36,820 bases of DNA. It comes from a phage. Under the pieces are notes generated by a model that was not told where the DNA came from, searched no databases, and was given only the letters and a program-made list of their open reading frames with translations. Shown piece by piece: positions 220 to 36,790 of the stretch; positions within the stretch are counted from its first letter, which is position 1, and each line of letters opens with the position of its first letter. The translations under genes were made by a program, and so were the position numbers. The stretch is from the sequence record PZ239915.1, one strand, 5' to 3'.

Positions 220-220
220 T

Positions 221-640
221 ATGAATATTACAGATAAGGTCGATTACATTGAATTTTACCCTGGCCCGGTTAAGTCATGCCCTAAGGAGGATGACGAACA
301 AATCTTTTGCTCTGATTGGGTTAAGTATAACTACCCAGATATGGTATTTTTCCATTGCGTGAATGAGGGAAAGAAAACCATTGGTCAAGCAAGAAAAGAC
401 CAGGCTAAGGGGCTTCTAAAAGGCGTATCAGACTGTATGTTTCTTATTCCTGAATCACTTCGAGGTAAGTATCCTTTCGGGGCTATAGAGCTAAAGAGGG
501 CTGGCAAAACTCAAGCAAGTCCAGTCAGCGAAGAACAGAAAGCATTTCTGAAAAGTGTAGTGGAATCAGGCGGTTTCTCGGCAGTCGCCTACGGACGTGA
601 GGGTTTTCTTGCAGCATTCAAAGAAATGATTTCAAAATAG
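221..640 (+). CDS. VRR-NUC-like (PD-(D/E)xK) nuclease
   Basis: 139-aa ORF; GVSDCMFLIPE...GAIELKRAGKTQ...SEEQK pattern resembles the VRR-NUC D/E-K nuclease core; GGA RBS before the ATG. Confidence 0.6.
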   Translation: MNITDKVDYIEFYPGPVKSCPKEDDEQIFCSDWVKYNYPDMVFFHCVNEGKKTIGQARKDQAKGLLKGVSDCMFLIPESLRGKYPFGAIELKRAGKTQASPVSEEQKAFLKSVVESGGFSAVAYGREGFLAAFKEMISK

Positions 641-680
641 CACGAATTGCTAAAGACGATTTTAAAATATGGGGTATAGT
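636..680 (+). promoter_or_regulatory. conserved palindromic box + -10-like hexamer (promoter-like element)
   Basis: AATAGCACGAATTGCTAAAG, 22-bp spacer, TATAGT. Confidence 0.5.
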
Positions 681-716
681 TACTACATCGAAACGAAACA
701 CAAAGAGAGAAATAAA

Positions 717-911
717 ATGGCTACTATCTACACTGGAAAATTCTACGAATCACGCAAAACTGGTTATAAATACCAACTTGTTATCACTGAAGATGGTTAT
801 GTACTTGATGATGAAGAGGGTTACGCATTAGAGGTTAGCCCAACATACAAAGATGATTTAGAGACAGTTAAAAATATATTTGGCGAAAAATTTGATGAGG
901 TATCAGAATGA
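717..911 (+). CDS. hypothetical protein (64 aa)
   Basis: Track ORF 669..911 trimmed to the ATG at 717, preceded by AGAGAGA; the conserved promoter box and CATCGAAACGA leader lie upstream. Confidence 0.5.
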   Translation: MATIYTGKFYESRKTGYKYQLVITEDGYVLDDEEGYALEVSPTYKDDLETVKNIFGEKFDEVSE

Positions 912-1066
912 GAGAGGCAATCGTAAACTGGAAAACCGGAGAGGATTCAAAATTCTTCTTCAATACATTCTCACAATACATTGACAAGTTTGTTTTCGTA
1001 ATTGATGGTGGATGCGAGGTTGTTGTTCCTATTAAGCTAATTGATGGGTTGGGAGTATCAGAATAA
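908..1066 (+). CDS. hypothetical protein (52 aa)
   Basis: ATGA start/stop overlap with the previous gene and TAATG overlap with the next; below the track size cutoff, found by manual translation. Confidence 0.4.
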   Translation: MREAIVNWKTGEDSKFFFNTFSQYIDKFVFVIDGGCEVVVPIKLIDGLGVSE

Positions 1067-1287
1067 TGGCAACCTTTACATTTGAGCACCAATGGGAAGT
1101 ATTTAAGTTAATGACGTTGCAGGAATTGCTTAAGGCTTGTTATAAAAAGCATGCTCCATCACTAGCTGAATGCCTGGATATGAGCTTTGAAGAAGACTAT
1201 CTGAACACCGATATCGAAACATGGCGAGACCGAATGGTTGCTGATATCGAAGAAATGAAAAAAGATTGCCCGGAGGATTTCTTATGA
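1066..1287 (+). CDS. hypothetical protein (73 aa)
   Basis: Track ORF in a translationally coupled series. Confidence 0.5.
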   Translation: MATFTFEHQWEVFKLMTLQELLKACYKKHAPSLAECLDMSFEEDYLNTDIETWRDRMVADIEEMKKDCPEDFL

Positions 1288-1481
1288 TTAACGAAAGGCC
1301 TTTTGTTGTTACATTTAAGCCAAGAAACAAACCCAGAATGGAGATTGACGAATACTTACTAAAATACGGAAATAGCTATTTTGTTCTTGAGATCTCAGCC
1401 GACTCGGATAGGTATATTGTTCGCAACGATGCTGGTATGGTTGTTAGTGTTTCAAAATTGGATGTTGAGATTGTGAGATGA
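1284..1481 (+). CDS. hypothetical protein (65 aa)
   Basis: Track ORF 1266..1481 trimmed to the ATG at 1284 after a GGAGGA RBS. Confidence 0.5.
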   Translation: MINERPFVVTFKPRNKPRMEIDEYLLKYGNSYFVLEISADSDRYIVRNDAGMVVSVSKLDVEIVR

Positions 1482-1669
1482 TTACTGCGACTTGCGTGCG
1501 TGCAAACGGCTCGTTTACTTTATTTGAGGATTACGAATTCAACTTTCATTCAGATGAGGTAACAGTATTGAGCGATGATGGGTGCTATTGGTTCGTTAGT
1601 TATCAAGGTGATGGTTATTACGGTTGCAGAGACGCGGAAGGAAAAGAAGTTAGTTTCTTAGTCGAGTAG
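1478..1669 (+). CDS. hypothetical protein (63 aa)
   Basis: ATGA overlap with the upstream gene; stop TAG sits inside the conserved palindromic box. Confidence 0.5.
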   Translation: MITATCVRANGSFTLFEDYEFNFHSDEVTVLSDDGCYWFVSYQGDGYYGCRDAEGKEVSFLVE

Positions 1670-1709
1670 CACTTTTTGTTAAAGCTCAAATCCAGGGATG
1701 GATTATATT
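1665..1709 (+). promoter_or_regulatory. conserved box variant + -10-like hexamer
   Basis: AGTAGCACTTTTTGTTAAAG, 22 bp, TATATT. Confidence 0.45.
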
Positions 1710-1739
1710 AAACACATCAACAACACAGAGGGTTAAGAG

Positions 1740-1865
1740 ATGAAAATTGCAGACAAAGAGATGTTCGAAATTGCACAAACTTATGCAAATGACGCAGTTA
1801 AAAACGGTTCAGAATGGTCATGGATGTGCGCCAAAGAATACCTAAAAATGGCTTACGGATTATGA
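1740..1865 (+). CDS. hypothetical protein (41 aa)
   Basis: Manual ORF downstream of a promoter box (1665-1709); ATGA overlap with the next gene. Confidence 0.35.
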   Translation: MKIADKEMFEIAQTYANDAVKNGSEWSWMCAKEYLKMAYGL

Positions 1866-2110
1866 TAGTAGAAACAGGACGAGCAGCCGTATGGGCGCAT
1901 TGTGGTGAAGCTGGATTGCAAGATGACATTAAGCAGATATCTAGATTCTTTGATATAAAAGATATCAGCGTCGTGTTCAATGGCAAATTCTCTTACATGG
2001 ATGAGCGCCCAAGAAAATACGTAAGAGTTAAGCCAGGCGTCAGGATTGATGTTAACGAGTTCCTTAAATCTGAGGGATTCAAGTTTAAGATAACGAAGCC
2101 TAAGGATTGA
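1862..2110 (+). CDS. hypothetical protein (82 aa)
   Basis: Track ORF 1814..2110 trimmed to the ATG at 1862 that overlaps the upstream TGA. Confidence 0.5.
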   Translation: MIVETGRAAVWAHCGEAGLQDDIKQISRFFDIKDISVVFNGKFSYMDERPRKYVRVKPGVRIDVNEFLKSEGFKFKITKPKD

Positions 2111-2364
2111 GTATGTTTGGTTTAGATTTTCAGCCAGAGCATTACGATTTAGTATATGGTCAAAGTGGTGCAAAGTTTAGAGCGATACCTATTGCTGATT
2201 GGTTCCCTCCTGATTATGTGGATGTGAACGCAAAAACTAAAGACGGGAAGTGGGTTCAGATTTACTACTCCCCAGCATGCGGAAACCTTTGTATGACTGA
2301 CCTTGATCAGAAATTAGCAATTAGTGCGGAAGTTATCGACTACTGGTTGAAAGAAGTTGAATGA
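2107..2364 (+). CDS. hypothetical protein (85 aa)
   Basis: Track ORF; ATGA-type junction with the upstream gene. Confidence 0.5.
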   Translation: MSMFGLDFQPEHYDLVYGQSGAKFRAIPIADWFPPDYVDVNAKTKDGKWVQIYYSPACGNLCMTDLDQKLAISAEVIDYWLKEVE

Positions 2365-2447
2365 AGAGCCTGATACTAGTAGCATTAGTCCAACTATTTA
2401 GCTTTACTATCTTATATTTTATCGTAATGAATTAAGGAACTTATATA

Positions 2448-3578
2448 ATGGCAACTGCAAAAATCACTAACGAACAATTGCGCGAAGAACTGGCTAATGG
2501 CATGACCAACAAGGCAATCGCAGAGAAGTATGGAATGAACATTCGCAACGTTGAATTGCGTCGCAGTAAGCTGGCAAAATCAGGCGAGCTTCATGGAAAC
2601 CCTGGTATCAAGAAGTTAGTCCCTGACGGTTATATGGTCAAAGGAACTTCAACGATGATTGACGCGGCGGGTAATGAAAAGCTTCGCTGGGTTAAAACCT
2701 CTGTAGATAATGAGCGCCTTGAGGTTTTAATGGAGCAAGCTAGAGAGGCATTTTGTTCTGAGTTGCCAAAAGCAGATGCGGTCAGCCACTCAGGCAACGA
2801 AGTTAACTCTGAATTAATGACTCTTTACCCTATTTTCGATATCCATATCGGCATGATGGCGCATCGCCATGAATCTGGTGAGAATTATGACACTAACACG
2901 GCAGAGAAATTAATGGAATCATATTTCGACCATGCAATTTCTGTATCACCTGCGTCAGAGAAAGCCGTTGTTTTAGTTGGCGGCGACTTCCTTCACTCTG
3001 ACGGATTGGAAGCTGTAACCCCAGCGAGCGGACACTGCCTTGATCAGGATAGCCGGTATGCTAAGTTAGTTTATGTTGCGATTCGATCGATTCGTGCCGC
3101 GGTAGAGAAGATGCTTAAGAAGCATAAGAATGTCGAGATTCAGATTATAGAGGGAAATCATGACCAAAGCGGCATGATCTGGCTTCGCGCTGCAATGGCT
3201 GCATTTTATGAAAACGAGAATCGCGTGTTTGTTGATACCAGTCCAGCAATCATGCACAAGACGCGATTTGGCTCAACATTACTTGGTTACACGCATGGTC
3301 ACACAATGAAGAAAGCCGAGGGTCGACTCGCAGCAATGGCGACCGACTACCGCAAAGACTTTGGTGAGTGTGAGTTTGTTTACTGCCACTCCGGGCATTT
3401 TCACCATGCAACTGTTACAGAGTGCACACTTGGTATTGACGAGGTTCACCCAGCACTGGCCAGTAAGGACGCATATGCCGCACGTGGAGGTTGGCGCTCA
3501 TACCGTCAAGCGGCTGCGATAGTTTACCACAAGAATTTTGGCGAGGTTGGTCGCCATATTTACCGCCCAGGCATGTAA
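2448..3578 (+). CDS. calcineurin-like metallophosphoesterase with N-terminal HTH domain
   Basis: Phosphoesterase motifs seen directly: DIHIG, GGDFLHSD, EGNHD, GYTHGH, HSGHFHH. N-terminal TNKAIAEKYGMNIRNVELRR resembles a helix-turn-helix. Stop TAA lies in a promoter box. Confidence 0.75.
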   Translation: MATAKITNEQLREELANGMTNKAIAEKYGMNIRNVELRRSKLAKSGELHGNPGIKKLVPDGYMVKGTSTMIDAAGNEKLRWVKTSVDNERLEVLMEQAREAFCSELPKADAVSHSGNEVNSELMTLYPIFDIHIGMMAHRHESGENYDTNTAEKLMESYFDHAISVSPASEKAVVLVGGDFLHSDGLEAVTPASGHCLDQDSRYAKLVYVAIRSIRAAVEKMLKKHKNVEIQIIEGNHDQSGMIWLRAAMAAFYENENRVFVDTSPAIMHKTRFGSTLLGYTHGHTMKKAEGRLAAMATDYRKDFGECEFVYCHSGHFHHATVTECTLGIDEVHPALASKDAYAARGGWRSYRQAAAIVYHKNFGEVGRHIYRPGM

Positions 3579-3622
3579 ATAGCACATTTTGTTAATAAAG
3601 CCTCAAAGGATTGAGGCAAAAT
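3578..3622 (+). promoter_or_regulatory. conserved box variant (weak -10)
   Basis: AATAGCACATTTTGTTAA, 22 bp, CAAAAT; spacer contains a hairpin. Confidence 0.3.
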
Positions 3623-3652
3623 GAATAAACGATAACGAGATGAGGAGTTATA

Positions 3653-4126
3653 ATGATTTACGTATTTGATATTGACGGAACTATAGCTAATAATGAGCAT
3701 AGAAATCACCTTTTACCATCCAGTGACCTTCACTTGACTTCAAGTTGGAAGTATTACAATAAAGCCTGTTCTGGAGACTCACCAATAATCCCAATGATAA
3801 ACATGATGAACAAACTTGCGGAATTATGTCCTGTTTACATAATGACATCCAGAAGTGATGAAGTTGAATGGAGAACCCTTGAGTGGCTTCAGGATAATGA
3901 GGTTGAGTATGATTCTATATACATGAGAAGTCGATATGACAACCGAAAAGATTACAAAATAAAAGAGGAATGGCTTAATGAAATCAGTGGTGGCGATAAA
4001 GGAAGTGTGGTTATTTTTGAAGATAACCCACAAGTAATTAAGCACCTAAGAAGTTGCGGATACACCGTTATGGCTGTATGTGAATATGAAGAACTACCTA
4101 AAGATTGCGAATCTCACGGAGAATGA
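3653..4126 (+). CDS. HAD-superfamily phosphatase/nucleotidase-like protein
   Basis: N-terminal FDIDGTI (DxDGT, HAD motif I); GAGGAG RBS. Confidence 0.55.
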   Translation: MIYVFDIDGTIANNEHRNHLLPSSDLHLTSSWKYYNKACSGDSPIIPMINMMNKLAELCPVYIMTSRSDEVEWRTLEWLQDNEVEYDSIYMRSRYDNRKDYKIKEEWLNEISGGDKGSVVIFEDNPQVIKHLRSCGYTVMAVCEYEELPKDCESHGE

Positions 4127-4128
4127 AA

Positions 4129-4683
4129 ATGACTAAATTATTTATCCTTAATGGCCCCGCTGGAGTTGGAAAGGACACTATAGCGGATATCATGGTTGAG
4201 ACTGGTGTAGCCAAAGAAAAGGTATCATTCAAGTCACCAATGTTTAACGTTGCAAAAGGAATGCTATCAAGCGATGAATTTGATGGATTCATCAAGAATT
4301 ACGACAATAGAGACTATAAGGAATCGCCTCATGGATTTCTTGGCGGTATGACAGTTCGTGAATTTATGATTTGGATTAGCGAGTCTGTAATGAAGCCAGT
4401 CTTTGGTGATGATATTTTCGGTAAAAGGCTAGCCAAGTCACTTGGTGATGGTTGCTACATTTGCGCTGATGGTGGATTTGCTAGCGAGATTAAGCCACTG
4501 ATCGACGCTGGTGTTGAGGTCACGTTAATCAGATTGCATAGGGCAGGGTACACATTTGATGGCGATAGTCGCTCATACATTCACGGGGTGTGCGCAAGAG
4601 AAATTGATGTTCGTGTTGTTGATTGTGATATTGATGGAACATCAGCATTGGTAAGGCACGTAATAAATAGCACGAATTGCTAA
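4129..4683 (+). CDS. P-loop kinase, deoxynucleoside-monophosphate-kinase-like
   Basis: Walker A GPAGVGKDT near the N-terminus, as in phage dNMP kinases. Start set at the ATG 6 nt after GGAGAA (track gave 4105). C-terminus NSTNC is encoded by the palindromic box. Confidence 0.55.
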   Translation: MTKLFILNGPAGVGKDTIADIMVETGVAKEKVSFKSPMFNVAKGMLSSDEFDGFIKNYDNRDYKESPHGFLGGMTVREFMIWISESVMKPVFGDDIFGKRLAKSLGDGCYICADGGFASEIKPLIDAGVEVTLIRLHRAGYTFDGDSRSYIHGVCAREIDVRVVDCDIDGTSALVRHVINSTNC

Positions 4684-4710
4684 AGATAATAATAAAAACT
4701 GAGTTATCAT
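4666..4710 (+). promoter_or_regulatory. conserved palindromic box + -10-like hexamer
   Basis: AATAGCACGAATTGCTAAAG, 22 bp, TATCAT. Confidence 0.45.
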
Positions 4711-4751
4711 TAACACATCGAAACGAGATGAAACAAAATAGGAAGCACAAA

Positions 4752-4928
4752 ATGACTAAAATGATTTATTGCACCAAAAACAACTCCAAGACGCTGCCAT
4801 TTACAGTTAACAAGCCGTACAATGCAGAGTATCAAGGTGACGGATACTACAAGATTTATGGCGACGATATGACGTGGATTTTAGCGCCGATTGATGGTTC
4901 GCTGGTTGAATTTATTATCGCAGACTAG
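4752..4928 (+). CDS. hypothetical protein (58 aa)
   Basis: Track ORF 4677..4928 trimmed to the ATG at 4752 after AGGAAG; promoter box and CATCGAAACGAGA leader upstream. Confidence 0.45.
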   Translation: MTKMIYCTKNNSKTLPFTVNKPYNAEYQGDGYYKIYGDDMTWILAPIDGSLVEFIIAD

Positions 4929-4954
4929 CGCATCTAAAACATAGCTTTACAAGT

Positions 4955-4983
4955 GGGGGGCCTTTTGGCTCCCCTTTTTTTTG
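4955..4983 (+). terminator. rho-independent terminator
   Basis: 8-bp GC-rich stem (GGGGGGCC/GGCTCCCC), 4-nt loop, then a 9-T run. Confidence 0.6.
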
Positions 4984-5047
4984 CTTCTTTTCCGAACAGG
5001 GCTACTGTATCATGTTTACACTAACTTAAACATTGACAAATAGACAA

Positions 5048-5275
5048 ATGGAGGATCACATGAGGGAAGTAATCAACGCCGCTACGGCGTCAACTGGAGG
5101 GGCAGCGGTAACTGGAGCGGCAACTGGTCAGATGACTATAGCAATAATCAGCCTTATCGCTTTAATCATTTTTGGTGCGTGGGGTGCTTACTGGAAGTTT
5201 AAGGATAGCCAGGCGATTCGGCGCGCTCTTGAATCAGGAGACTTAAAAACAGCAATCAAGATAAGGAGTAAGTAA
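5048..5275 (+). CDS. holin (possible dual-start holin/antiholin)
   Basis: Small protein with a hydrophobic stretch TIAIISLIALIIFGAWGAYW and a charged C-terminus, directly upstream of the endolysin. Two in-frame ATGs (MEDHM) four codons apart. Track start 5033 is a TTG. Confidence 0.6.
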   Translation: MEDHMREVINAATASTGGAAVTGAATGQMTIAIISLIALIIFGAWGAYWKFKDSQAIRRALESGDLKTAIKIRSK

Positions 5276-5761
5276 ATGAAGCAGAGGCTGCTAATTAGCG
5301 CGGCTACGGCTGCGGCAATATACATCGCAGCACAGCTTATTGAGCTCGTAGAGGGTGTGGAAAACAAGCCTTACATGGACATTGCTGGAATCCCTACTGT
5401 TTGCTCTGGCGTTACTGGCCCTGACGTTGTTTGGGGTAAGACCTACAGCAACAGGGAATGCCGGAACTTACTGGAGAAGCACATTCAGATTCATGCCAGG
5501 CATGTTCAGAATGCAGTTACCTACCCAATCGCACCTCAGACAAGAGCGGCTTTAATCAGCTTTAGCTACAACGTTGGTGGAAATGCGATGAGGAATTCAA
5601 CGGCAGTTCGACTTATTAATCAGGGTAAAGTTGAGCAGGGTTGCAATGCTCTCGGGATGTGGAATAAGGCTCGGGTTAACGGAAAGCTAAAGGTAGTTAA
5701 AGGCCTAGTTAACAGGAGAAACGAGGAGATTAAGTTATGCTTAAGTGGATTGCAGCGTTAG
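5276..5761 (+). CDS. SAR endolysin (GH24 lysozyme family)
   Basis: Gly/Ala-rich N-terminal signal-anchor-release segment LLISAATAAAIYIAAQLI followed by an E-x-D-x-T catalytic pattern (ENKPYMDIAGIPT); starts one nt after the holin stop. Confidence 0.8.
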   Translation: MKQRLLISAATAAAIYIAAQLIELVEGVENKPYMDIAGIPTVCSGVTGPDVVWGKTYSNRECRNLLEKHIQIHARHVQNAVTYPIAPQTRAALISFSYNVGGNAMRNSTAVRLINQGKVEQGCNALGMWNKARVNGKLKVVKGLVNRRNEEIKLCLSGLQR

Positions 5762-6126
5762 TAGTGTGCGTAGCTTTATCTGGATGCTCAGCAACAGATG
5801 CGCTGACTGGTTTGATTGGAAGTAAGCCGGAAATTAGCGCTCAGGCCGGAGCGGAAAACAATAAGGTTGGTGTTGGGTTAACGAACAAGGTTGACTCCAG
5901 CAGCTCCAGTGAAGCAACTGTTAAAGATTCTAAGGTTGGGTCACTGGATAGCTCGAGCGGGAAAAAGACTGCTGACAACTCGATTAAGGCATCTACAATC
6001 ACCGCAGAAAAGATTGAGATTACCAACAACGACTCATCCGCACTTCCATGGATTGGAACAGGAGCTATGGGGTTACTTGTTTTTATCCTCCTGACTGTAA
6101 TCTTAAGACGTAAAAAAGCCTCCTGA
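5737..6126 (+). CDS. unimolecular spanin (lipoprotein with C-terminal TMD)
   Basis: Lipobox LSGC at the N-terminus plus C-terminal transmembrane segment GLLVFILLTVIL and basic tail; overlaps the endolysin 3' end by 25 nt; AGGAGA RBS. Confidence 0.65.
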   Translation: MLKWIAALVVCVALSGCSATDALTGLIGSKPEISAQAGAENNKVGVGLTNKVDSSSSSEATVKDSKVGSLDSSSGKKTADNSIKASTITAEKIEITNNDSSALPWIGTGAMGLLVFILLTVILRRKKAS

Positions 6127-6142
6127 TGGAGGCTATATTTTT
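6112..6142. terminator. bidirectional terminator between convergent genes
   Basis: AAAAAA, GCCTCC/GGAGGC stem with TGAT loop, then TATATTTTT; sits between the spanin (+) and a minus-strand ORF. Confidence 0.55.
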
Positions 6143-6476
6143 AGCTAAATAACTCGTCGTCAGCCATTGTTCCTATATTCATCATCTCTTTTATGTACTT
6201 GCTTTCATAACCGTTAAGTGCCTCGAAGTTAAACCCAAATGGCCTATTCAAACTCCCCTTGCTAACAAACTCCCCGCACTTACCATCAATGTAACCCATA
6301 CTAAGCATCTTCGCGCAGAACTCTTTTGAAGCCGCGCTGCAAAACTCTCGATGTGATAAACCCGCTGCCTTGCTGAACCTCTCAGAGTCCTTATGCTGGT
6401 ATATGAATCTCGCCAAATGCTGGCGCGTGAAGTATGAATATGACTCGCAGAACTTAAATATATCGAGAAGAAACAA
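6141..6476 (-). CDS. hypothetical protein (TTG start)
   Basis: Track ORF. TTG start lies 5 nt after a GGGAGG inside the HNH gene 3' end. Alternative internal ATG at 6311. Confidence 0.35.
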   Translation of the reverse strand: MFLLDIFKFCESYSYFTRQHLARFIYQHKDSERFSKAAGLSHREFCSAASKEFCAKMLSMGYIDGKCGEFVSKGSLNRPFGFNFEALNGYESKYIKEMMNIGTMADDELFS

Positions 6477-6478
6477 AG

Positions 6479-7009
6479 CTACCTCCCGTGATTATCATGG
6501 TAAGAAAGCGAGATCTCAGCAGATTTTCTTGCGCATGCTGCATCAAAAATATTATCGTAATAACCAAGACTGGTAGTTTTCCCATTGACCCCTATCTGCG
6601 AAAAGTATTTTCCACGCTTATTTATTGTTACGCCAGATATTCCAGTCTTATTCCTCTTATTCATTGATAGGTTCTTCTGGTTGCATTGCCTTGACACCAG
6701 CCTTAGATTTTCAACTCTGTTGTCATTTCTTATGTGATTAATGTGATCAACTTGCATTCCTTCCGGTATACTTCCATTAATCATCTCCCATATAACCCTA
6801 TGAGCCATATATCTTTCCCCATATATACCAAGAAGTATATAACCACAACCTTTATCATCAAGGCATCCAGCTACCTTGCCAGCGTATTGGGTGTTGCACT
6901 TATTCATTGTTCTAACCTGAGAGAAGTGACTTAAAGGCCTTATTTTCCATATCAGTTTTCCATTTTTGTAATAAAAATATTCATGCCAGTTCATTTCCGC
7001 TAACTCCAT
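6479..7009 (-). CDS. HNH homing endonuclease with AP2-like DNA-binding domain
   Basis: VDHINHIRNDNRVENLR HNH motif; downstream GISGV...YFSQIGVNGK...LGYYD resembles an AP2 domain. Confidence 0.75.
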   Translation of the reverse strand: MELAEMNWHEYFYYKNGKLIWKIRPLSHFSQVRTMNKCNTQYAGKVAGCLDDKGCGYILLGIYGERYMAHRVIWEMINGSIPEGMQVDHINHIRNDNRVENLRLVSRQCNQKNLSMNKRNKTGISGVTINKRGKYFSQIGVNGKTTSLGYYDNIFDAACARKSAEISLSYHDNHGR

Positions 7010-7026
7010 CGTGTTTGCCTATGCAA

Positions 7027-7075
7027 ACAATAACAAAAGCCCACTAGGGGCTTTTAACAAAAAATGCTATTTATC
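7027..7075 (-). promoter_or_regulatory. conserved box variant + -10-like hexamer (minus strand)
   Basis: Minus strand reads TAAATAGCATTTTTTGTTAA, 22 bp containing a terminator hairpin, TATTGT. Confidence 0.4.
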
Positions 7076-7076
7076 A

Positions 7077-8660: not shown

Positions 8661-8690
8661 TACTTCTCTCCGTGTTGTTTCTGAGCGGCC

Positions 8691-8741
8691 ATTATATCAA
8701 CGACCGCTTATAATGCGTTATCAATTTGTGCTATTTACAGG
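8691..8741 (-). promoter_or_regulatory. conserved box variant + -10 (minus strand)
   Basis: Minus strand reads TAAATAGCACAAATTGATAACG, 22 bp, TATAAT, upstream of the 527-aa gene. Confidence 0.5.
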
Positions 8742-9121: not shown

Positions 9122-9156
9122 TTTGTTTGCCCTTGCGTGTTTCGTTTCGATGAGAT

Positions 9157-9204
9157 GAATATACAGGAAAAGCCCCGAAGGGCTTTAGCAATTCGTGCTA
9201 TTTC
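9157..9204 (-). promoter_or_regulatory. conserved palindromic box + -10-like hexamer (minus strand)
   Basis: Minus strand reads AAATAGCACGAATTGCTAAAG, 23 bp containing a hairpin, TATATT, then CATCTCATCGAAACGAAAC leader. Confidence 0.45.
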
Positions 9205-9955: not shown

Positions 9956-9965
9956 ATCTCAAGCC

Positions 9966-10145: not shown

Positions 10146-10846
10146 ATCTATCCCCTCGTTGTTGATGAGTTAACTATAGCCACACCATACCATAATGTCT
10201 TTAGCAAAAAGTGCCATTCGTTAGATTTATGTATTGTTGCAGATATTGCAATGATTCACATGATTATTGCACATACAGCAATATTGCTTCAGATGCAATG
10301 ATGTTTTTGATTGTTGCGAGATTTGTAATGATTGATGCGTGAGGTGAATGAAAGATGGATGGACTACCATACAAGTTGATTTTACCAATCGATGAGCCAT
10401 TCTTGTGATATACGAGTAACCCACGTATACCAAGTGTCGTCACAAAAGTTAGTGGGCACTAACCTACGTTTTTACGCGAGATATACACACGATATACATT
10501 AAAATATCTATATATATCAACCTTTTACTTTATTATTATTATTATTATTATATATATGTATACTGCGTATACCGATCATTGGTGAGATAATTGATATGTT
10601 CCGCGCAGATATTCTGTCACCTGTAGGAAAAGGATGACACTGTAGGAATAGATAGGCATGCATGCGGCCTGGTGGGTAAAAAAGTGTATACACGGCGTAC
10701 GCGCAATATACATATAGAGATGATGCGGTGCTAGAGGCGGTTTTGCGTATTAGGTTAAAAATATACAAAGAAATACTTTGACTAACGCGTAAATCTGATG
10801 CAATATACCAATCACTGAAACGAAGTACACAACAACGAGGTTATAC
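10146..10846. promoter_or_regulatory. divergent intergenic control region (candidate operators/origin)
   Basis: About 700 bp with no credible ORF between divergent gene sets. Contains two ~24-bp repeats ATTGTTGC(A/G)AGAT(A/T)TTG(C/T)AATGATT at 10232 and 10309, palindromes GCAATATTGC and GTGTATACAC, a (TTA)7 tract at ~10530, and CTGTAGGAA x2 at 10621 and 10640. Confidence 0.5.
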
Positions 10847-11389: not shown

Positions 11390-11913
11390 TGTTTGATTTC
11401 AACGAAGACAAATTGACGGATGAACAGATTATGAGTATTGCAAAGCAGGATGGAATTCCACCGCTACGGATTGCAATCAATGCAAATGGGTATCGGCATG
11501 TTCAGCACCTCTGGGGCCAGCCTGATGCATCGGGAGTCTACATAGATGAAGAGCTGGGAGTTCTGATTAAGTTGATTAGGAAAATGGCAAGGAACGGGAG
11601 GGGAGTGGTGGGTGTCAAGTCTGTACACGAGGGCGCTCGCAAGATTAAGCCGTTCGTAGGACGCTTTGATGTCATGCGCATAATCAAGGATGAACTAATC
11701 CCAGCACTTGATAAGATGAATCTCACATGCCTCATTGGCGATAAGATTTATGTTCATCCGGCAATCATTGATGAGTACTGGCAGCCTAACTTCAAAACTT
11801 ACGAAGGTGAACATGCTAGTAGACTACCATACCACTTGCGGTACAGCGAGGAAGAGGTTGAGGTGGCCATTGAGTTCTATAGGAAAGCTAAATCACTACT
11901 GAATGGTAAATAG
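11389..11913 (+). CDS. short paralogue of the 527-aa protein (N- and C-terminal modules only)
   Basis: MFDFNEDKL...PPLRIAINANGYR and GRGVVGVKS...KPF...TCLIGDKIY match both ends of the 7077..8660 product; first 20 nt are identical to that gene's start. Confidence 0.6.
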   Translation: MFDFNEDKLTDEQIMSIAKQDGIPPLRIAINANGYRHVQHLWGQPDASGVYIDEELGVLIKLIRKMARNGRGVVGVKSVHEGARKIKPFVGRFDVMRIIKDELIPALDKMNLTCLIGDKIYVHPAIIDEYWQPNFKTYEGEHASRLPYHLRYSEEEVEVAIEFYRKAKSLLNGK

Positions 11914-11953
11914 CACTTTTTGCCTAACGCGGTAATGCCATGGATGGCATAAT
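11908..11953 (+). promoter_or_regulatory. conserved box variant + -10-like hexamer
   Basis: AAATAGCACTTTTTGCCTAA, 22 bp, CATAAT. Confidence 0.45.
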
Positions 11954-11992
11954 AGCCTCATCGAAACGAGATACGTAAATTAGGGATTTAAA

Positions 11993-12211
11993 ATGAGCAA
12001 GACAATCACGCTGCAATGCCTTAAGACAAATAATCCAGAGTTCTTAAAAGGTCACAAATATGTAGCAACTCTGGTAGACGGTAAAACATGGGCAGTTAAG
12101 GGGGGATTCCAGGATTACAAATTCCCACTCGAGCACATTCCTGGTGGAAATCTTGGTTTTGTTAGTAGCTGCCGCTCGGTTAAGTTCGTGTTTGAAGTGG
12201 TAATGAAATAG
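11993..12211 (+). CDS. hypothetical protein (72 aa)
   Basis: Track ORF preceded by promoter box, CATAAT and CATCGAAACGAGA leader. Confidence 0.5.
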   Translation: MSKTITLQCLKTNNPEFLKGHKYVATLVDGKTWAVKGGFQDYKFPLEHIPGGNLGFVSSCRSVKFVFEVVMK

Positions 12212-12251
12212 CACGAATTGCTAAACAATGGATCGGGTAGTCGGCTACGAT
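12206..12251 (+). promoter_or_regulatory. conserved palindromic box + -10-like hexamer
   Basis: AAATAGCACGAATTGCTAAAC, 22 bp, TACGAT. Confidence 0.4.
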
Positions 12252-12275
12252 TACCCCATCGACAACAACGATGAA

Positions 12276-12515: not shown

Positions 12516-12547
12516 TCAAGATTCGCATTATCAATAACAACGAGGAA

Positions 12548-12757: not shown

Positions 12758-13017
12758 AACGTTTAATGACATGCATGACCATTATTGCGGCAATGATTGT
12801 TCTTACTGGTTGCGAGAAGGCACCGGAGGTTCAGATTCAGTCAGGTGAATTCAATGTGGAGCGTCTATTCACAGTGGATGGATGTACCGCCTACAGATTC
12901 CGAGATAGCGATAGAGCCATCTACTACACAAATTGCCATGGCAGTACGCAGAGTGAGTACAGGTCCGGCAAGGTCATGAAGAAAGAAACAGTTCAGACAG
13001 ATCGCACGAATTGGTAA
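12754..13017 (+). CDS. putative lipoprotein (87 aa)
   Basis: Signal peptide with lipobox LTGC; three further Cys residues; C-terminus DRTNW overlaps a variant palindromic box. Confidence 0.5.
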   Translation: MKRLMTCMTIIAAMIVLTGCEKAPEVQIQSGEFNVERLFTVDGCTAYRFRDSDRAIYYTNCHGSTQSEYRSGKVMKKETVQTDRTNW

Positions 13018-13044
13018 AAGGGGATTCATCATGACTGGTATAAT
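13001..13044 (+). promoter_or_regulatory. conserved box variant + extended -10
   Basis: ATCGCACGAATTGGTAAAAG, 22 bp, TATAAT preceded by TGG. Confidence 0.5.
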
Positions 13045-13197
13045 CCCCAGCATCAACCACATGAATGGAAGTTAAGTGACGATATACGAACATAAATTCA
13101 GTAGCAGGGGTATTGATATGCTACTGCACTATATAGACGAAAAATACGCAAAGCTCATGCTTAAGACGCATGGCGGCACAATAACGAGGGTTGAGAT

Positions 13198-13452: not shown

Positions 13453-13498
13453 AAATAGCACTAATTGCTAAGCCCGCTACGGCTGGTTTTGTTATAGT
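13453..13498 (+). promoter_or_regulatory. conserved palindromic box + -10-like hexamer
   Basis: AAATAGCACTAATTGCTA, 22 bp, TATAGT. Confidence 0.5.
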
Positions 13499-13532
13499 TA
13501 GTCAACACCAAGCGAGAGGAAAGGAAGTAAAG

Positions 13533-13923: not shown

Positions 13924-14063
13924 TTTACATCCATACGTACTACACTGGCAAGTTCAACAGCGTTAAGCATGTTCGAGTTCACGATAGCTACGAGAGCGCA
14001 AAGGCCCAATGGTTGGTTCTTGGTGGTGATATTAATTCATATAGAGTAGCCGAGCGGCACTAA
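13920..14063 (+). CDS. hypothetical protein (47 aa)
   Basis: Manual ORF; ATGA overlap with the upstream gene; stop TAA inside the palindromic box. Confidence 0.35.
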   Translation: MIYIHTYYTGKFNSVKHVRVHDSYESAKAQWLVLGGDINSYRVAERH

Positions 14064-14097
14064 TTGCTAAAACAGTACCGGGGTAATTTGTTATAGT
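14054..14097 (+). promoter_or_regulatory. conserved palindromic box + -10-like hexamer
   Basis: GCGGCACTAATTGCTAAAA, 22 bp, TATAGT. Confidence 0.45.
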
Positions 14098-14128
14098 TAC
14101 CCAATCTAAAAGAGATGAGGGATTACAG

Positions 14129-14639: not shown

Positions 14640-14778
14640 ATATGTTATCGCATGCGAACGACTGGTCTTTGATATGAAGACTTTTCACTGGTTCATCATT
14701 AAGGATTTAATTAAGCCTTATAAGCAGGGTGTGACACCTGAGGCATTTATCAAGAACTTCTATAGCACTAAAAGCTAA
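14626..14778 (+). CDS. hypothetical protein (50 aa)
   Basis: Track ORF 14548..14778 trimmed to the ATG at 14626 after GGTGGA. Confidence 0.4.
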   Translation: MSFTEYVIACERLVFDMKTFHWFIIKDLIKPYKQGVTPEAFIKNFYSTKS

Positions 14779-14835
14779 GCGCGGTCGCCAAGGGTTGCGT
14801 ATGATTACCACATCAACACAACGAGAGATTGAGAT

Positions 14836-16641: not shown

Positions 16642-18207
16642 ATGTCTTTAGTATGGGAAGAAATGACCATTCAGGAAAAGATGGCCGTTAAGGCGATATC
16701 AGAACACAGCTTCGAGGGCTTTCTTCGTTGCTGGTTCCAGATCACGCAAGGCGAGCGATACATCCCTAACTGGCATCACAAGTACTTGTGCAGAATAATT
16801 GACGAGATTATCGCAGGAGAGCGCAAGGACACCATCATTAACATAGCACCAGGAAGCGGAAAGACGGAAATTGCCTCAATCCACTTCCCGGCCTATTCGA
16901 TGGTTAAGCTTAGGAAGGTGCGCAACCTTAACATCTCTTTTGCTGACTCCCTGGTTAAGCGTAACTCGAAGCGAGTACGTGACCTTATCAAGTCTCAAGA
17001 ATTTCAGTCACTCTGGCCATGCAAGTTTGGCACTTGCAAAGACGATGAGCTTCAGGTTCTTGATGAGAGTGGCAAGGTTAGATTTGAGTCAATATCAAAG
17101 GCGGCTGGAGGCCAGATTACTGGCGCTCGCGGTGGGTACATAACCGAAACATACAGCGGAGCCGTTCTTTTGGATGACTTTGACAAACCCGCAGATATGT
17201 TATCAGCAGTGTACCGCTCGAATAATCACGTAATGCTTAAAAATACGATTCGCTCACGTCGAGCCAGTTCTGTAAAAGGAAAAGCGACACCAATCATTTC
17301 GATACAGCAGCGGCTTCACGTCAATGACTCAACCTATTTCATGATGGAAGGCGGCATGGGTATAGAATTCGATTTGATTAAGATACCAGCATTAGTTACT
17401 GAGGATTACATTGATTCACTTCCTGACTGGATTAAAGATCAGTTTGCTGAGGACGTACTAAGCAGCGAATACATTGAGCGAGATGGCGTAAAGTACTACA
17501 GCTACTTTCCTAAAAAGGAATCCGTAAACGACCTGGTGGCAATGTGGGATAGCGACCCGTACACATTCCTTAGTCAATATCAGCAGGAGCCAGTAGCGCT
17601 GGGTGGCAACCTAATTAACGTGGACTGGTTCCAGAGAATCAGTGATACGTTCAGACCTCCAGCTAAGTACGACTATCGATTCATAACTTGCGATACCGCA
17701 ATGACCACTAAAAGTTACAGCGACTTCTCTGTTCTTCAGTTGTGGGGCTATAAAGATGCTAAGATTTACCTTATTGATCAGCGCAGGGGTAAATGGGAGG
17801 CCCCAGAGTTGGAGGCTGAACTGCTGGACTTCGAGAAGAAATCAAGGGCAACCAGTCAGTCAGATGGTATCCTCAGAAAGATTATTATCGAGAAGAAAGC
17901 GTCTGGTATAGGCCTGATTCAATCAGCTGGCAGGGTTATGCGAACACCGATAGAGCCATACGTACCGGATAATGACAAGCTAACCAGGGTGATGAGTGCA
18001 CTACCACAGATTAAGGCTGGTAACGTAGTTCTTCCAGAGTCATCGCCGTGGCTAAACGGATTGCTCACTGAGGTTGCGGCTTTTACGGCAGATGACTCGC
18101 ATAAGCACGACGACCAAATTGACTGTCTAACAATGGCGGCAAACCTTGTACTTAACATCGCGGATGATCCTAAGTCGAGACTGATGCGCATAGCTGGAAT
18201 GAAATAG
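16642..18207 (+). CDS. terminase large subunit
   Basis: 521 aa; Walker A APGSGKT in the N-terminal ATPase region, acidic nuclease-type C-terminal half; position before the portal. Confidence 0.85.
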   Translation: MSLVWEEMTIQEKMAVKAISEHSFEGFLRCWFQITQGERYIPNWHHKYLCRIIDEIIAGERKDTIINIAPGSGKTEIASIHFPAYSMVKLRKVRNLNISFADSLVKRNSKRVRDLIKSQEFQSLWPCKFGTCKDDELQVLDESGKVRFESISKAAGGQITGARGGYITETYSGAVLLDDFDKPADMLSAVYRSNNHVMLKNTIRSRRASSVKGKATPIISIQQRLHVNDSTYFMMEGGMGIEFDLIKIPALVTEDYIDSLPDWIKDQFAEDVLSSEYIERDGVKYYSYFPKKESVNDLVAMWDSDPYTFLSQYQQEPVALGGNLINVDWFQRISDTFRPPAKYDYRFITCDTAMTTKSYSDFSVLQLWGYKDAKIYLIDQRRGKWEAPELEAELLDFEKKSRATSQSDGILRKIIIEKKASGIGLIQSAGRVMRTPIEPYVPDNDKLTRVMSALPQIKAGNVVLPESSPWLNGLLTEVAAFTADDSHKHDDQIDCLTMAANLVLNIADDPKSRLMRIAGMK

Positions 18208-18247
18208 CACAAATTGCTAAACACTAAAGCCACGGATGGCGTATAGT
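18202..18247 (+). promoter_or_regulatory. conserved palindromic box + -10-like hexamer
   Basis: AAATAGCACAAATTGCTAAA, 22 bp, TATAGT; 29-bp block GTATAGTTACTTCACACAAACGAGAGGAG identical to 30239-30267. Confidence 0.5.
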
Positions 18248-18276
18248 TACTTCACACAAACGAGAGGAGAAGAAAG

Positions 18277-30201: not shown

Positions 30202-30245
30202 ACAGCACGAATTGCTAAAGGAGATTTAAAAAGATGGGGTATAGT
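30201..30245 (+). promoter_or_regulatory. conserved palindromic box + -10-like hexamer
   Basis: AACAGCACGAATTGCTAAAG, 22 bp, TATAGT. Confidence 0.5.
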
Positions 30246-30273
30246 TACTTCACACAAACGAGAGGAGGTAAAA

Positions 30274-30627
30274 ATGTTCTACATTAAATTCAAAGGATAC
30301 AAAAAAGAAAAAGAAAAGTGCACTGGTTTGTTTTTTGTTGGCCGCATTTACACCTGCGGTGTTGTTGACTCAAACATGTACTATCAGACGCAGGATGAGA
30401 ATGGCAATATTGTAAAGTTTCAAAGTATTTTTCATGATGATTGTTACGACTTTTCAAGAATTGATACTCAGAGCAAGGTATTAGATGAGCATGATAACAA
30501 GATGAAATATCGAATGAATGGTGTTGATGTCACTAAGTCATTCTTTGATGATAAGCTACTGGAAGTTGAGCTGCTTAAATCAAGAGGTGTTTCAGTATTT
30601 ATAGATTTTGAGGTTTATTTTGAATAA
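30274..30627 (+). CDS. hypothetical moron protein (117 aa), paralogue of 18277..18609
   Basis: Inserted between L-like and K-like genes with its own promoter box upstream and terminator downstream. Confidence 0.55.
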   Translation: MFYIKFKGYKKEKEKCTGLFFVGRIYTCGVVDSNMYYQTQDENGNIVKFQSIFHDDCYDFSRIDTQSKVLDEHDNKMKYRMNGVDVTKSFFDDKLLEVELLKSRGVSVFIDFEVYFE

Positions 30628-35000: not shown

Positions 35001-35464
35001 ATGGGATTAGTCTTGGCCTGAAATACAACGGACAGACTTATTCATCCGGCATGAGTATGGAGCTTGTTGGCACTGGTGGAAATGTTCGCAGTCAGTTCAT
35101 ATTTGACGCAAACAGGTTCGCAATCAGTAACGGAATTGGTTCTGGTTCCGGTCAGTGGCAACTCCCCTTTGTTGTCGAGAACGGAAACGTAATCATCCAA
35201 AGCGCAGTAATCGGCGACGGATCAATTACTAACGCGAAGATTGGTAATATAATTTCATCAAATGATTATGTGGCGGGCTCTCAGGGATGGGCGATACTGA
35301 AAAGTGGTGCGTCAGAGTTCAATAACACAACTGTAAGGGGCAATCTTTACGCTAACAATGGTAACTTTGCTTTTAACGGAACCAATAACACGGTTCAGAT
35401 TAACAATAACGGAATAACTGTAAACTTACCGAACGGAGGGAGAGTTGTAGTTGGAGTGTGGTAA
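32039..35464 (+). CDS. central tail fibre / host specificity protein (lambda gpJ-like)
   Basis: 1141 aa; blocks recalled from lambda J are visible (IRKITPDSTSS, QVPTNYDPETRTYSGTWNG...WVLYDLVTNRRYG). Start may be a downstream in-frame ATG (32078). Confidence 0.85.
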   Translation: MAQMIKTNMRLCDMAEEIKIYGAKGGSQKQHQPVEQEDNLISLNKVKVLLAVADGEVDPNFSMKDLYLADVPVQNQDGSYNYDGVRAEFRAGTQYQDYIAGLDGANSEIQASREITNDTPYIIAVNNTQLSAIRVKLFWPRLVKQESNGDLNGTTCEYAIDLSVNGGAYQEYTRGVANGKTTTGYDRSIRVNLPAEFDSALVRIRKITPDSTSSTLVNGMQITTYQEVIDAKFRYPLTALVYVEFSSDLFPNGIPTISIKKRWKLIQVPTNYDPETRTYSGTWNGLFKMAWSNNPAWVLYDLVTNRRYGLDQRELGVEIDKWGLYEAAQFCDQMVPDGKGGLEPRYLCDMVVQNKVEAYTLIRDICSIFRGLTFYDGEKIGIVVDKPRNPSYIFTNDNVVNGLFSRTFASDKSLYTTANVQFDDVENNYQQDVEPVFELEATRRFGFNPVDITAIGCTRRSEANRRGRWLLKTNLRSETISFTTGLEGMIPMIGEVIAVNDAAWSSNYQLNLSGRIESAQGLQVFTPFKVDAAPGDRILLNKPDGSPEARTIASVSEDGRTINLNTAFSFVAQTDTVFAIDKDNLALQQYVVTGIQKADSDGSDSFQYTITAVEYDPNKYDEIDYGVNIVDRPTSIVEPDRLSPPENLTVSSYSKVVQGLSVETMVIGWDKAPYAKTYNVQWRKENGNWINVPRTASTEVDIEGIYAGIYDVRVRSVSDTENVSAWSDIVTVSLTGKIGRPSAPTVVTASTDEVFGIRVKWGFPDGSGDTAYTELQQVPDNGDGTYNPDNASLLTLLPYPAYEYWHTPIQPGKVIWYRARLIDRIGNTSDWSDFARGMSTDDANIINEYIKVDIEGSEGFKYLEQNAIQKNQDIQNQAESILENALANDTDVRRMTKENGKRKAEYVQAVNLIADETQARVEALTQLKAQIDDEVVSSITEVQTALATETEARTTADTQLSARLGENEAALNQKLDAFSNATSTGVQYGISLGLKYNGQTYSSGMSMELVGTGGNVRSQFIFDANRFAISNGIGSGSGQWQLPFVVENGNVIIQSAVIGDGSITNAKIGNIISSNDYVAGSQGWAILKSGASEFNNTTVRGNLYANNGNFAFNGTNNTVQINNNGITVNLPNGGRVVVGVW

Positions 35465-35465
35465 T

Positions 35466-35498
35466 AAATAAAGCCCCTTAATTGGGGCTTTTCTTTTA
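35466..35498. terminator. bidirectional terminator between convergent J-like and RBP-like genes
   Basis: A-rich run, AGCCCC/GGGGCT stem, T-rich run. Confidence 0.6.
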
Positions 35499-36467
35499 GT
35501 AGAAGTTTGGGATAAATGGAAGTGCCATTGATATGTTCGTGTCGAAAGGAAACTGAGCGCCTGATTGCGTCGAGTAGTTACCAATTACAGAGCCAGGAAC
35601 AGCCCTAACAGAGCCTCCAGACATGCAGACCCCCTTGTACCTTAAGTTGTTGTAACCTCCAGTAACTCTAGTCGTAGCTCCGCATCTAAGCAGCGGGAAG
35701 AATCCACCATTTATTGACTGGTATCCATTATTGATCTGAATGAATCCACCAAGAACAAATGGTCGCCTAACGCTCGAAAAAACAATCTGACCAGAGCTGT
35801 TTGACATTGTAAGTCCGGGTCCAGCTAGTGGTGGTTCATTCCTGAATATCACCAACTGAACGTAAGTACTTGCCGCAACATCATCTGTACCTCCGTAGGT
35901 TATATCCCTACACCATATTGTTGATCCATCTGATTCAAGTGATACGTTTGGATTATCCCACTTGCCGAATGGTATTCCGCTAACTGGTAGCGATGCTTCA
36001 CCGTTAACCTGTATGCCCCCAACCCAGGCCGCAGACATTAGCCGCGAGTTGCTTGATATAGCAAGGAAATCAGTTGAGTTCTCAACAAGTATTCCAGGAC
36101 TTGATGAGGATGAAGCCGGTAGTATCTCAAAGCAATTCCCTGCAAAGTCAATTATTCGACCATTAGCACCATTGAAGTTACTGAGCGTTATCCTACCAGT
36201 GCCGTCATTTACCTTTTGAAACCCGTTCATGTAATAAACTTCGGGTATAACATCGTAAGCGTCAACGTGGACTGCTTTCGTTGGTAGGCAGAAAGCCGTA
36301 GAGCCAGGAGACATTGTCAATCCAAAATCCCACGAACTTGCTGGGGTTGAAAGTCCATTGGTATTTATTGATCCAGTCACAGCGGGGGCCCTTAATCCTG
36401 CCGTGATTTCCATCGCTGGCCTTCCGTCATTCAGGTCTATTAGAATACCCTGCGGCATTATTTCCAC
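35496..36467 (-). CDS. putative receptor-binding protein
   Basis: 323-aa Gly/Ser/Asn-rich ORF convergent with the J-like gene and co-oriented with (overlapping) a small lipoprotein gene; arrangement resembles T5 oad/llp. Confidence 0.5.
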
Positions 36468-36703
36468 TCCTTACTTCCGTGATCAGCTACTGACCCACCG
36501 TAACCGCCACCGACCTTGCTTTCAATTCCAGCGTAGCGAATATCAACCTCACCCGCCGGAACAACTACACCGCCTTTCCACTTAGACACGCACACGCCGT
36601 TTGCTTGCGTTGCACACCAACCATCCGGGCGAGGACCTGAAGAACAGCCCACAATCATGATTGCTGCTGCTGCGATGATTGCTGATTTGATTAATTTATT
36701 CAT
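36458..36703 (-). CDS. small lipoprotein, putative superinfection-exclusion factor (Llp/Cor-like)
   Basis: 81 aa; signal peptide with lipobox IVGCSS plus two further Cys ([10 protein letters not shown]); directly upstream of the RBP-like gene; promoter box upstream on the minus strand. Confidence 0.5.
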
Positions 36704-36743
36704 TTTGTATTCCTTAGTAATTTCGTTTCGTTTCGATGGAGTA

Positions 36744-36790
36744 ATAATACAACCGTCAGTGAGGAATGTCTTTAGCTATTCGTGCTATTG
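36744..36790 (-). promoter_or_regulatory. conserved box variant + -10-like hexamer (minus strand)
   Basis: Minus strand reads AATAGCACGAATAGCTAAAG, 23 bp, TATTAT, then CCATCGAAACGAAACGAAA leader before the lipoprotein gene. Confidence 0.45.

Follow-up and report, generated by a model that had tools for sequence, protein, structure and literature searches.

The 36.8-kb window analysed here (the whole stretch PZ239915.1, 36,820 nucleotides) comprises most of the genome of a T1-like Escherichia coli siphophage of the family Drexlerviridae, whose closest relative is vB_EcoD_SU57. It is punctuated by a short composite element made up of a conserved box, a fixed spacer, a -10-like hexamer and an A/C-rich leader. 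From its sequence, the box can be assigned with high confidence as a marbox, the asymmetric 20-bp site to which MarA, SoxS and Rob bind, which are monomeric activators of the AraC family with two helix-turn-helix (HTH) motifs. The composites are very probably promoters, and they probably represent sigma70-dependent class II MarA/SoxS/Rob promoters served by a host activator. This reading would give a function to a published repeat of unassigned role, and the promoter would be of a known kind found in an unexpected place.

The composite element and its match to the marbox

A search of the window for AATAGCAC-N3-TTGYTA with at most one mismatch returned 13 matches against 0.03 expected in shuffled sequence, and 17 genuine composites were recognised when up to three mismatches were allowed and the context was read. 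The first-pass annotation of this DNA had counted about 15 copies. All 15 positions that it listed exist, but the total is 17 and the copies at 10217(-) and 14762(+) had been missed; its plus-strand coordinates are exact or off by 1 and those on the minus strand are off by 1-6 (correctly 7071, 8735, 9202 and 36789). The order of the parts is constant and all 17 composites are co-oriented with the downstream gene. A hexamer with A at its second and T at its sixth position begins 22 bp past TTGCTA in 15 copies and 23 bp past it in two (10217- and 36788-), which corresponds to 18 and 19 bp from the end of the box. The same gaps had been described before, 23 bp being assigned to two minus-strand copies, but only 36788- of this pair was in the earlier list. 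In the weak copy, placed earlier at 3578 and here at 3579, CAAAAT alone stands at the -10 position.

Other features of the composites are also conserved, namely a G at -14 before the hexamer and a C(-1)A(+1) pair seven nucleotides past it. The shared leader that had been reported is present as CATCGAAACGAGA, i.e. CATC(G/A)A(A/C)AAC, in nine of the 17 copies and as CACACAAACGAGAGGAG in two, and the A/C-rich leader measures 21-42 nt from the predicted start to the start codon. As for the claim that the boxes follow stop codons, the arrangement is even tighter, the stop codon of the upstream gene usually lying inside the box. It is either a TAG at box positions 2-4 (638-640, 1667-1669, 11911-11913, 12209-12211 and 18205-18207, for open reading frames (ORFs) ending at 640, 1669, 11913, 12211 and 18207) or a TAA at positions 15-17 within GCTAAA (4681-4683, 13015-13017 and 14776-14778, for ORFs ending at 4683, 13017 and 14778). 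Coding sequence, putative activator site and often a terminator thus overlap.

The marbox consensus has been quoted as AYNGCACNNWNNRYYAAAYN (PMC2064960), and a second version is GCAHWWWWTGYYAAA (PMC6900184). Applied as blind patterns with at most one mismatch, the first found 13 window sites versus 0.85 in shuffles and the second 14 versus 1.18. Two extra one-mismatch matches (14129 and 32039) sit on start codons, and their number equals the chance expectation. Read from its second A, the phage box has the consensus ATAGCAC-nnW-TTGYTAAA-nn (20 bp) and agrees with the marbox at 12 of the 13 specified positions. Position 10 had been left free in the site search, and it is A or T in all of 51 sites from three genomes, as W10 of the consensus demands. 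The symmetry between TAGCA and TGCTA is the partial symmetry built into the marbox itself (GCA...TGY).

The 17 composites are listed below, with starts predicted at 7 nt past the hexamer and with the genes that they are predicted to drive given as targets.

637..687, plus strand: composite; marbox 637-656 ATAGCACGAATTGCTAAAGA, 18 bp, TATAGT 675-680, predicted start A687; target ORF from 717; TAG stop of ORF 221-640 within the box.
1666..1716, plus strand: composite; marbox 1666-1685, 18 bp, TATATT 1704-1709, predicted start 1716; target ORF from 1740; stop of ORF 1478-1669 within the box.
3579..3629, plus strand: weak copy; marbox 3579-3598, then a hairpin at 3600-3617; CAAAAT only at the -10 position; precedes the polynucleotide kinase/phosphatase gene (3653).
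4667..4717, plus strand: composite; marbox 4667-4686, 18 bp, TATCAT 4705-4710, predicted start 4717; target ORF from 4752, then the lysis genes; TAA stop of ORF 4105-4683 within the box.
7020..7070, minus strand: composite; marbox 7070-7051, TATTGT 7032-7027, predicted start 7020; target HNH gene; terminator-like hairpin 7056-7034 in the spacer.
8684..8734, minus strand: composite; marbox 8734-8715, 18 bp, TATAAT 8696-8691 bracketed by an 11-bp stem, predicted start 8684; target helicase gene 8660-7077.
9151..9201, minus strand: composite; marbox 9201-9182, TATATT 9163-9158, predicted start 9151; target ORF 9121-8735; intrinsic-terminator hairpin AAAGCCCTTCGGGGCTTT in the spacer.
10166..10217, minus strand: composite, absent from the earlier list; marbox 10217-10198 ATGGCACTTTTTGCTAAAGA, 19 bp, TATAGT 10178-10173, predicted start 10166; predicted first promoter of the leftward early genes.
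11910..11960, plus strand: composite; marbox 11910-11929, 18 bp, CATAAT 11948-11953, predicted start 11960; target ORF 11993-12211.
12208..12258, plus strand: composite; marbox 12208-12227, a perfect match to the 20-mer consensus, 18 bp, TACGAT 12246-12251 within a strong hairpin, predicted start 12258.
13001..13051, plus strand: composite; degenerate marbox 13001-13020 ATCGCACGAATTGGTAAAAG, 18 bp, TATAAT 13039-13044, predicted start about 13051.
13455..13505, plus strand: composite; marbox 13455-13474, 18 bp, TATAGT 13493-13498; target ORF 13533-13718.
14054..14104, plus strand: composite; marbox 14054-14073 GCGGCACTAATTGCTAAAAC, 18 bp, TATAGT 14092-14097 bracketed by the stem GGGTAA/TTACCC; target ORF 14129-14311.
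14762..14812, plus strand: composite, absent from the earlier list; marbox 14762-14781 ATAGCACTAAAAGCTAAGCG, 18 bp, TATGAT 14800-14805, predicted start 14812.
18204..18254, plus strand: composite of the late region; marbox 18204-18223, a perfect consensus match, 18 bp, TATAGT 18242-18247, leader CACACAAACGAGAGGAG; target ORF 18277-18609; TAG stop of the large terminase gene within the box.
30202..30252, plus strand: composite of the tail region; marbox 30202-30221, 18 bp, TATAGT 30240-30245, leader as at 18204; target ORF 30274-30627, a paralogue of 18277-18609.
36737..36788, minus strand: composite; marbox 36788-36769 ATAGCACGAATAGCTAAAGA, 19 bp, TATTAT 36749-36744, predicted start 36737; target ORF 36703-36458.

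The ORFs 18277-18609 and 30274-30627 stand behind the sole two cassettes of the late region and share 39% identity (E 2e-11). The cassettes at 18204 and 30202 have in turn an identical -10 and leader (TATAGTTACTTCACACAAACGAGAGGAG), and a joint duplication of promoter and gene follows from this. In addition, a few orphan boxes have no properly spaced hexamer or are antisense to genes, namely 2327(-) in the window and 120(-), 15086(-), 18850(-) and 34902(+) in T1. Such boxes may represent cassettes that have decayed, sites of the class I type or decoys.

Promoter geometry and conservation in the Drexlerviridae

In promoters of class II, the marbox is oriented forward, overlapping the -35 (PMC6900184), and the micF soxbox, centred at -41.5, belongs to this class (PMC9638938). 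In the cryo-electron microscopy structure of Rob with RNA polymerase (RNAP) at micF, Rob contacts G-47 and A-45 of GCAC and sigma region 4 is kept off the -35 (PMC9178005). All 17 window copies are oriented as micF is relative to hexamer and gene, with GCAC distal and AAA proximal to the -10, and the phage GCAC falls at -47 to -44 as in this structure. The box centre lies at about -41 if the start is 7 nt past the hexamer, in line with the class II activator position proposed in the first-pass annotation. Its objection that a gap of 22 bp between TTGCTA and the hexamer does not make a sigma70 -35/-10 pair also stands; TTGCTA was considered as a -35 and rejected, the spacer being 22 bp with no hexamer at 17 bp. 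Four class II promoters of E. coli K-12 were compared with these distances:

micF: marbox ACAGCACTGAATGTCAAAAC, 18 bp, TAGAAT, read directly.
inaA: marbox ACGACACGTTTCATTAAGAT, 18 bp, TATAGT, read directly.
nfo: marbox ATCGCATAAACCACTACATC, 18 bp, TATCAT, read directly.
fumC: perfectly matching marbox, hexamer AATAAT or TAATAA at an ambiguous distance (17 or 19 bp), read directly.

The composite pattern written from the phage sites also matches the micF promoter. A rule of 18-19 bp between box and hexamer is reportedly due to Martin et al. 1999, and it was checked here on these four promoters only, with fumC ambiguous.

The phage composites hence have in common with micF, inaA, nfo and fumC an asymmetric 20-bp box with GCAC and YAAA elements, placed forward over a poor -35, 18-19 bp from the hexamer and centred at about -41. 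They differ in that the phage boxes are far nearer to the consensus than the degenerate sites of the host, in that they would form the main promoter type of a virulent phage, with 9-21 copies per genome of about 50 kb, and in that they hold the upstream stop codon and often a spacer hairpin. Promoters of the CRP/FNR type also have a site at about -41.5 over the -35, but that site is symmetric and bound by a dimer whereas the phage box is asymmetric. In the middle promoters of T4, where sigma is appropriated by MotA and AsiA, an activator box likewise stands in for the -35, its distance to an ordinary -10 being fixed. The centre of the MotA box (TGCTT) lies at -30, with 11-13 bp between box and -10. 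A T4-type middle promoter was rejected, the phage box having its centre at about -41 and another sequence, and no MotA or AsiA protein being found among the scanned candidates.

The first-pass annotation had proposed to look for the box and its spacing in relatives, and both are conserved. The box was counted in nine Drexlerviridae genomes, those of SU57, T1, TLS, two Klebsiella weberviruses, two Tempevirinae, a Cronobacter phage and a phage reported on Vibrio. It is present in all of them, at 5-16 copies per genome versus about 0.1 expected by a back-of-envelope estimate. In the window and nine Drexlerviridae genomes together, the E. coli consensus alone finds 145 sites with at most one mismatch. 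When these are sorted by their distance to a -10-like hexamer, 99 fall into a single sharp peak at 18 bp, while 16 lie at 17 bp, 6 at 19 bp and 15 at 21 bp. IMG/VR, scanned with an exact pattern, gave at least 120 stretches; among the matches listed, the contigs all measure 41-52 kb and most hold several copies. Vibrio phage Vc1 (7 boxes) and Cronobacter phage SG01 (5 boxes), more distant members of the Drexlerviridae, have fewer boxes and, with 3 each, also fewer full composites than the phages of E. coli and Klebsiella.

The element has been seen before in another form. A re-annotation of phage TLS (German et al. 2024, PMC11447400) described a 21-nt direct repeat, aaATAGCACnnnTTGnTAAAA, in 21 copies that are co-oriented with transcription, lie about 76 nt before start codons and fall into A, T and G sub-classes of the central triplet. 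Similar repeats were reported in T1, Rtp and Rogue1, and only three sigma70-like promoters were found in TLS (PMC11447400). The function was left open, with stoperators, enhancer-binding sites or UP elements being proposed (PMC11447400). Consensus, triplet sub-classes, orientation and distance to the start codon identify this repeat as the same element as the window box, but the TLS paper gives neither a fixed spacing to a -10 hexamer nor the match to the marbox. Our literature search returned no report of a fixed distance between box and -10 and none naming the factor. It likewise returned no link of the marbox, Rob, MarA or SoxS to T1-like phages and no map of start sites for the Drexlerviridae. 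The earlier remark that the element is not a described promoter class does not hold, since the box was already published as a repeat and since class II MarA/SoxS/Rob promoters are matched by it in sequence, in orientation and in spacing.

Canonical sigma70 -35/-10 pairs are not enriched in window 1-19000 (31 versus 42 +/- 6 in shuffles), so the marbox composite appears to be the main recognisable promoter type. Their scarcity echoes the three sigma70 promoters reported for TLS. Of note, no strong canonical match was noted at an intergenic position of window 1-19000. In a sigma70 scan, no more than 2 of the 17 composites reach 9/12, both by way of hexamers that overlap the 3' end of the box. 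In the SU57 record, BPROM sigma70 promoters are annotated at the same places.

The reader of the box and competing explanations

According to the mechanism that we propose, each box would be bound by one monomer of a two-HTH AraC-family activator, with one recognition helix reading GCAC (about -47 to -44) and the other reading YTAAA (about -37 to -33). Placed forward and overlapping a non-functional -35, the activator would contact the C-terminal domain (alpha-CTD) that belongs to RNAP's alpha subunit, as well as region 4 of sigma70, and host RNAP would be recruited to the -10 hexamer 18-19 bp downstream. Transcription would start at the conserved A of 'CAT', 7 nt past the hexamer, and give an unstructured A/C-rich leader. 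The most likely reader of the box would be host Rob, which is constitutively present, with MarA and SoxS joining when induced.

No phage-encoded reader of this kind came out of the searches. When MarA and SoxS were used as tblastn queries on the window and on the full SU57 genome, no match had an E below about 4, and scans of 14 candidate proteins against Pfam and PHROGs gave no AraC-family or HTH_18 match. The HTH candidate that had been suggested at 2448-3578 does not qualify, because no HTH was detected in it (no Pfam match) and relatives annotate it as a DNA-repair exonuclease. The sole phage protein resembling a transcription factor is a Cro-like, single-HTH regulator encoded beside the primase gene and outside the window (SU57_00052, T1 gp23, PHROG 2856), for which no solved homologue was found. 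Its identity is about 50% between subfamilies and its recognition helix varies, while the box is unchanged; in parallel, conservation between subfamilies is lacking for most small early proteins. Since no AraC match was found in the phage, the regulator is variable and the early proteins are not conserved, a host factor conserved among Enterobacterales fits best.

Several points nevertheless weigh against a host activator of the Rob type. Position 19 of the consensus (Y) is not matched, being mostly A or G in the phage boxes, although micF likewise has an A there, and fumC, the fourth E. coli class II promoter, leaves the hexamer position ambiguous (17 or 19 bp). Rob is largely inactive in unstressed cells, in which MarA and SoxS are scarce, and phages usually supply their own promoter-specificity factor. 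The heaviest objection comes from a genome-wide Keio screen with the T1-like phage LL5, in which eight host genes proved to be required; rob, marA and soxS are not mentioned in its text (PMC7229145). It is therefore probable that losing rob alone is no great hindrance to the phage. This absence could be explained by redundancy among the three paralogues or by basal activity of a near-consensus -10 with G at -14. Dependence on a host factor in vivo is thus proposed with moderate confidence.

The strongest competing explanation, which we regard as improbable, retains the palindrome TAGCA-N5-TGCTA near -42 as the site of a phage-encoded dimeric HTH protein that activates RNAP in the manner of lambda cI at PRM. 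The arms lie one helical turn apart, as suits an HTH dimer, and the obvious candidate, the Cro-like regulator, is encoded in every Drexlerviridae genome examined; the habit of phages to bring their own promoter factor and the silence of the LL5 screen on rob speak in the same direction. The pattern of conservation, however, does not support the dimer site that the first-pass annotation had proposed. Among the 51 sites there are zero compensatory changes and all departures in the arms are one-sided. G4 is invariant while its partner position 14 is C (33 sites) or T (16 sites), and A1, C7, T11, A17 and A18 are conserved yet non-complementary (A/A at pair 1/17, C/T at pair 7/11). Such asymmetric conservation, which extends to the flanks, is the signature of an asymmetric monomer site. 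Moreover, the recognition helices of the regulator read QTVEEWFNRG, QTVQGWKERN, KTVWGWKERG and RLTNAYRLRG by subfamily whereas the box is constant, the regulator gene lies outside the window, and the 12-of-13 match to the marbox and the spacing of micF, inaA and nfo would be left unexplained.

It is rather unlikely that the hexamers are weak activator-independent sigma70 promoters of an extended -10-like kind and that the box is a stoperator or repressor site, a roadblock or insulator separating transcription units, or an UP-like contact for alpha-CTD. The stoperator, enhancer-site and UP-element options come from the TLS authors (PMC11447400), the conserved G at -14 could give basal activity, and some T1 boxes are antisense or stand without a properly spaced hexamer. 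These phages are virulent, though, and have no lysogenic repressor to serve, and the sharp spacing of 18 bp (99 sites) points to the need of an activator that contacts RNAP rather than to a roadblock. UP elements are A/T-rich and have no invariant GCAC, and a box at -50 to -31 is not at the position of an UP element.

An action at the RNA level is very unlikely, with the box or the spacer hairpins processing, stabilising or attenuating read-through transcripts and the supposed starts being processed 5' ends. What speaks for it is the folding of the region from the box end to +3, which is better than in shuffles (mean z -2.3 over the 51 sites), single window sites reaching z -4.25 and -3.68; some of the hairpins are bona fide terminators, and the bracketing stems stop just before the predicted start. 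The hairpin of the box itself, for which the first-pass annotation had envisaged an RNA role, is on the contrary weak (mean -2.7 kcal/mol), lacks covariation and lies upstream of the predicted start. Box, spacing and hexamer are universal, but a strong spacer hairpin is found in only about half of the window sites; A2 and T6 in the hexamer and the CA at the start are typical of promoters, and Rfam gives no match. The spacer hairpins make better sense as a second function added to the promoter. Another holoenzyme such as sigma54 is scarcely credible, as the likeness of GCAC-N-TTGC to TGGCAC-N5-TTGCW is superficial (copy 10217- does read TGGCAC) and is refuted by the spacing read from the sequence (a gap of N3 and not N5 between GCAC and TTGC), AG stands in place of the essential GG in 15 of 17 copies (GG only in 10217- and 14054+), and the start would fall within the spacer and leave the conserved hexamer unexplained.

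Spacer hairpins, mosaic cassettes and significance for T1-like phages

The hairpins of the spacers are of two kinds. In the first, a GC hairpin ends at the hexamer, and the A-tract of the marbox and the T-rich -10 form the flanks of a terminator, the latter as its U-tract (9201- and 7070-, as well as the T1 annotated terminators at 38973, 39998 and 41980). In the second, a stem of varying sequence brackets the hexamer and ends at about -1. Strong hairpins of the window are located at 8681-8714(-), 12228-12261(+), 14074-14107(+), 9148-9186(-) and 7017-7056(-), with z of -4.25 for 8734-, -3.68 for 12208 and -2.77 for 9201-; those of T1 are at 1450, 2269, 3535, 4344, 4864, 6531, 47117 and 47633.

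Window and SU57 record differ by a circular permutation, position 1 of the window corresponding to SU57 35378. The small early genes of the window form two divergent arrays, and replication and lysis genes and a structural module are also present. Bases 1-6000 are 99.7% identical to Escherichia phage vB_EcoD_SU57, and the packaging/head region 16000-22000 is about 93% identical to both SU57 and phage vB_Ec-G8. When the window is compared with SU57, the breakpoints at 3 of 8 block junctions fall at cassettes (8735, 9144-9151 and 14828), which are small numbers. Cassettes lie at or next to the ends of blocks with 99.6-99.7% identity to SU57, and the adjoining genes are replaced or missing (about 350 and 240 bp are extra in SU57).

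This arrangement recalls the PeSL cassettes of T4-type phages, composite terminator/promoter motifs that mediate gene shuffling (PMC2839356, PMC4122927). Common to the phage element and the PeSL/PmSL cassettes are a short unit of promoter and stem-loop repeated among small variable early ORFs and perhaps mosaic breakpoints at the cassettes between close relatives. The difference is that the promoters of the PeSL cassettes are of the ordinary -35/-10 or the Mot-box kind (PMC4122927 cites the Mot box), whereas the element described here matches a marbox of class II with the stem-loop within the promoter spacer.

Other features lie near the early arrays. A tRNA gene at 15731-15805 marks the end of the rightward array, its counterpart in SU57 being annotated as tRNA-Arg, and it was the sole match when the whole window was searched against Rfam, which returned no family for the box or spacer elements. 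Between the divergent arrays, 10219-10846 is a non-coding, AT-rich region of about 630 bp in which ATTGTTGCAGATATTGCAATGATT and TACGCG.GATATACA each occur three times, alongside an (ATT)n run and several inverted repeats. It may be a candidate origin or packaging region, or it may hold operators of the phage regulator. Gene 10847 may have a promoter that is independent of the box, namely TTGACT-N17-CAATAT at about 10778-10806, behind which a similar leader stands.

T1-like phages are ubiquitous, they are notorious contaminants of laboratories and fermentations and they are included in therapy cocktails. Genome papers on them repeatedly report too few recognisable promoters together with an unexplained repeat. 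The class II marbox reading offers a concrete and cheaply testable mechanism. A wider proposal, which remains tentative, is that the Drexlerviridae may have handed most promoter recognition to host MarA/SoxS/Rob. The speed of infection would then be tied to the chemical stress of the host, the inputs being bile salts, fatty acids, salicylate, oxidants and antibiotics. With about 15-20 near-consensus marboxes each, amplifying phage genomes could also titrate the activators and so withdraw them from the resistance regulon of the host, and the cassettes would double as terminators and as recombination joints by which small early genes are shuffled. If true, these would be rare virulent phages that rely on a non-essential host stress regulator for most of their promoters, and they would provide a set of very strong natural marboxes for the study of the MarA/SoxS/Rob activator family. 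It would also link the antibiotic-resistance regulons (mar/sox/rob/ram) to phage susceptibility.

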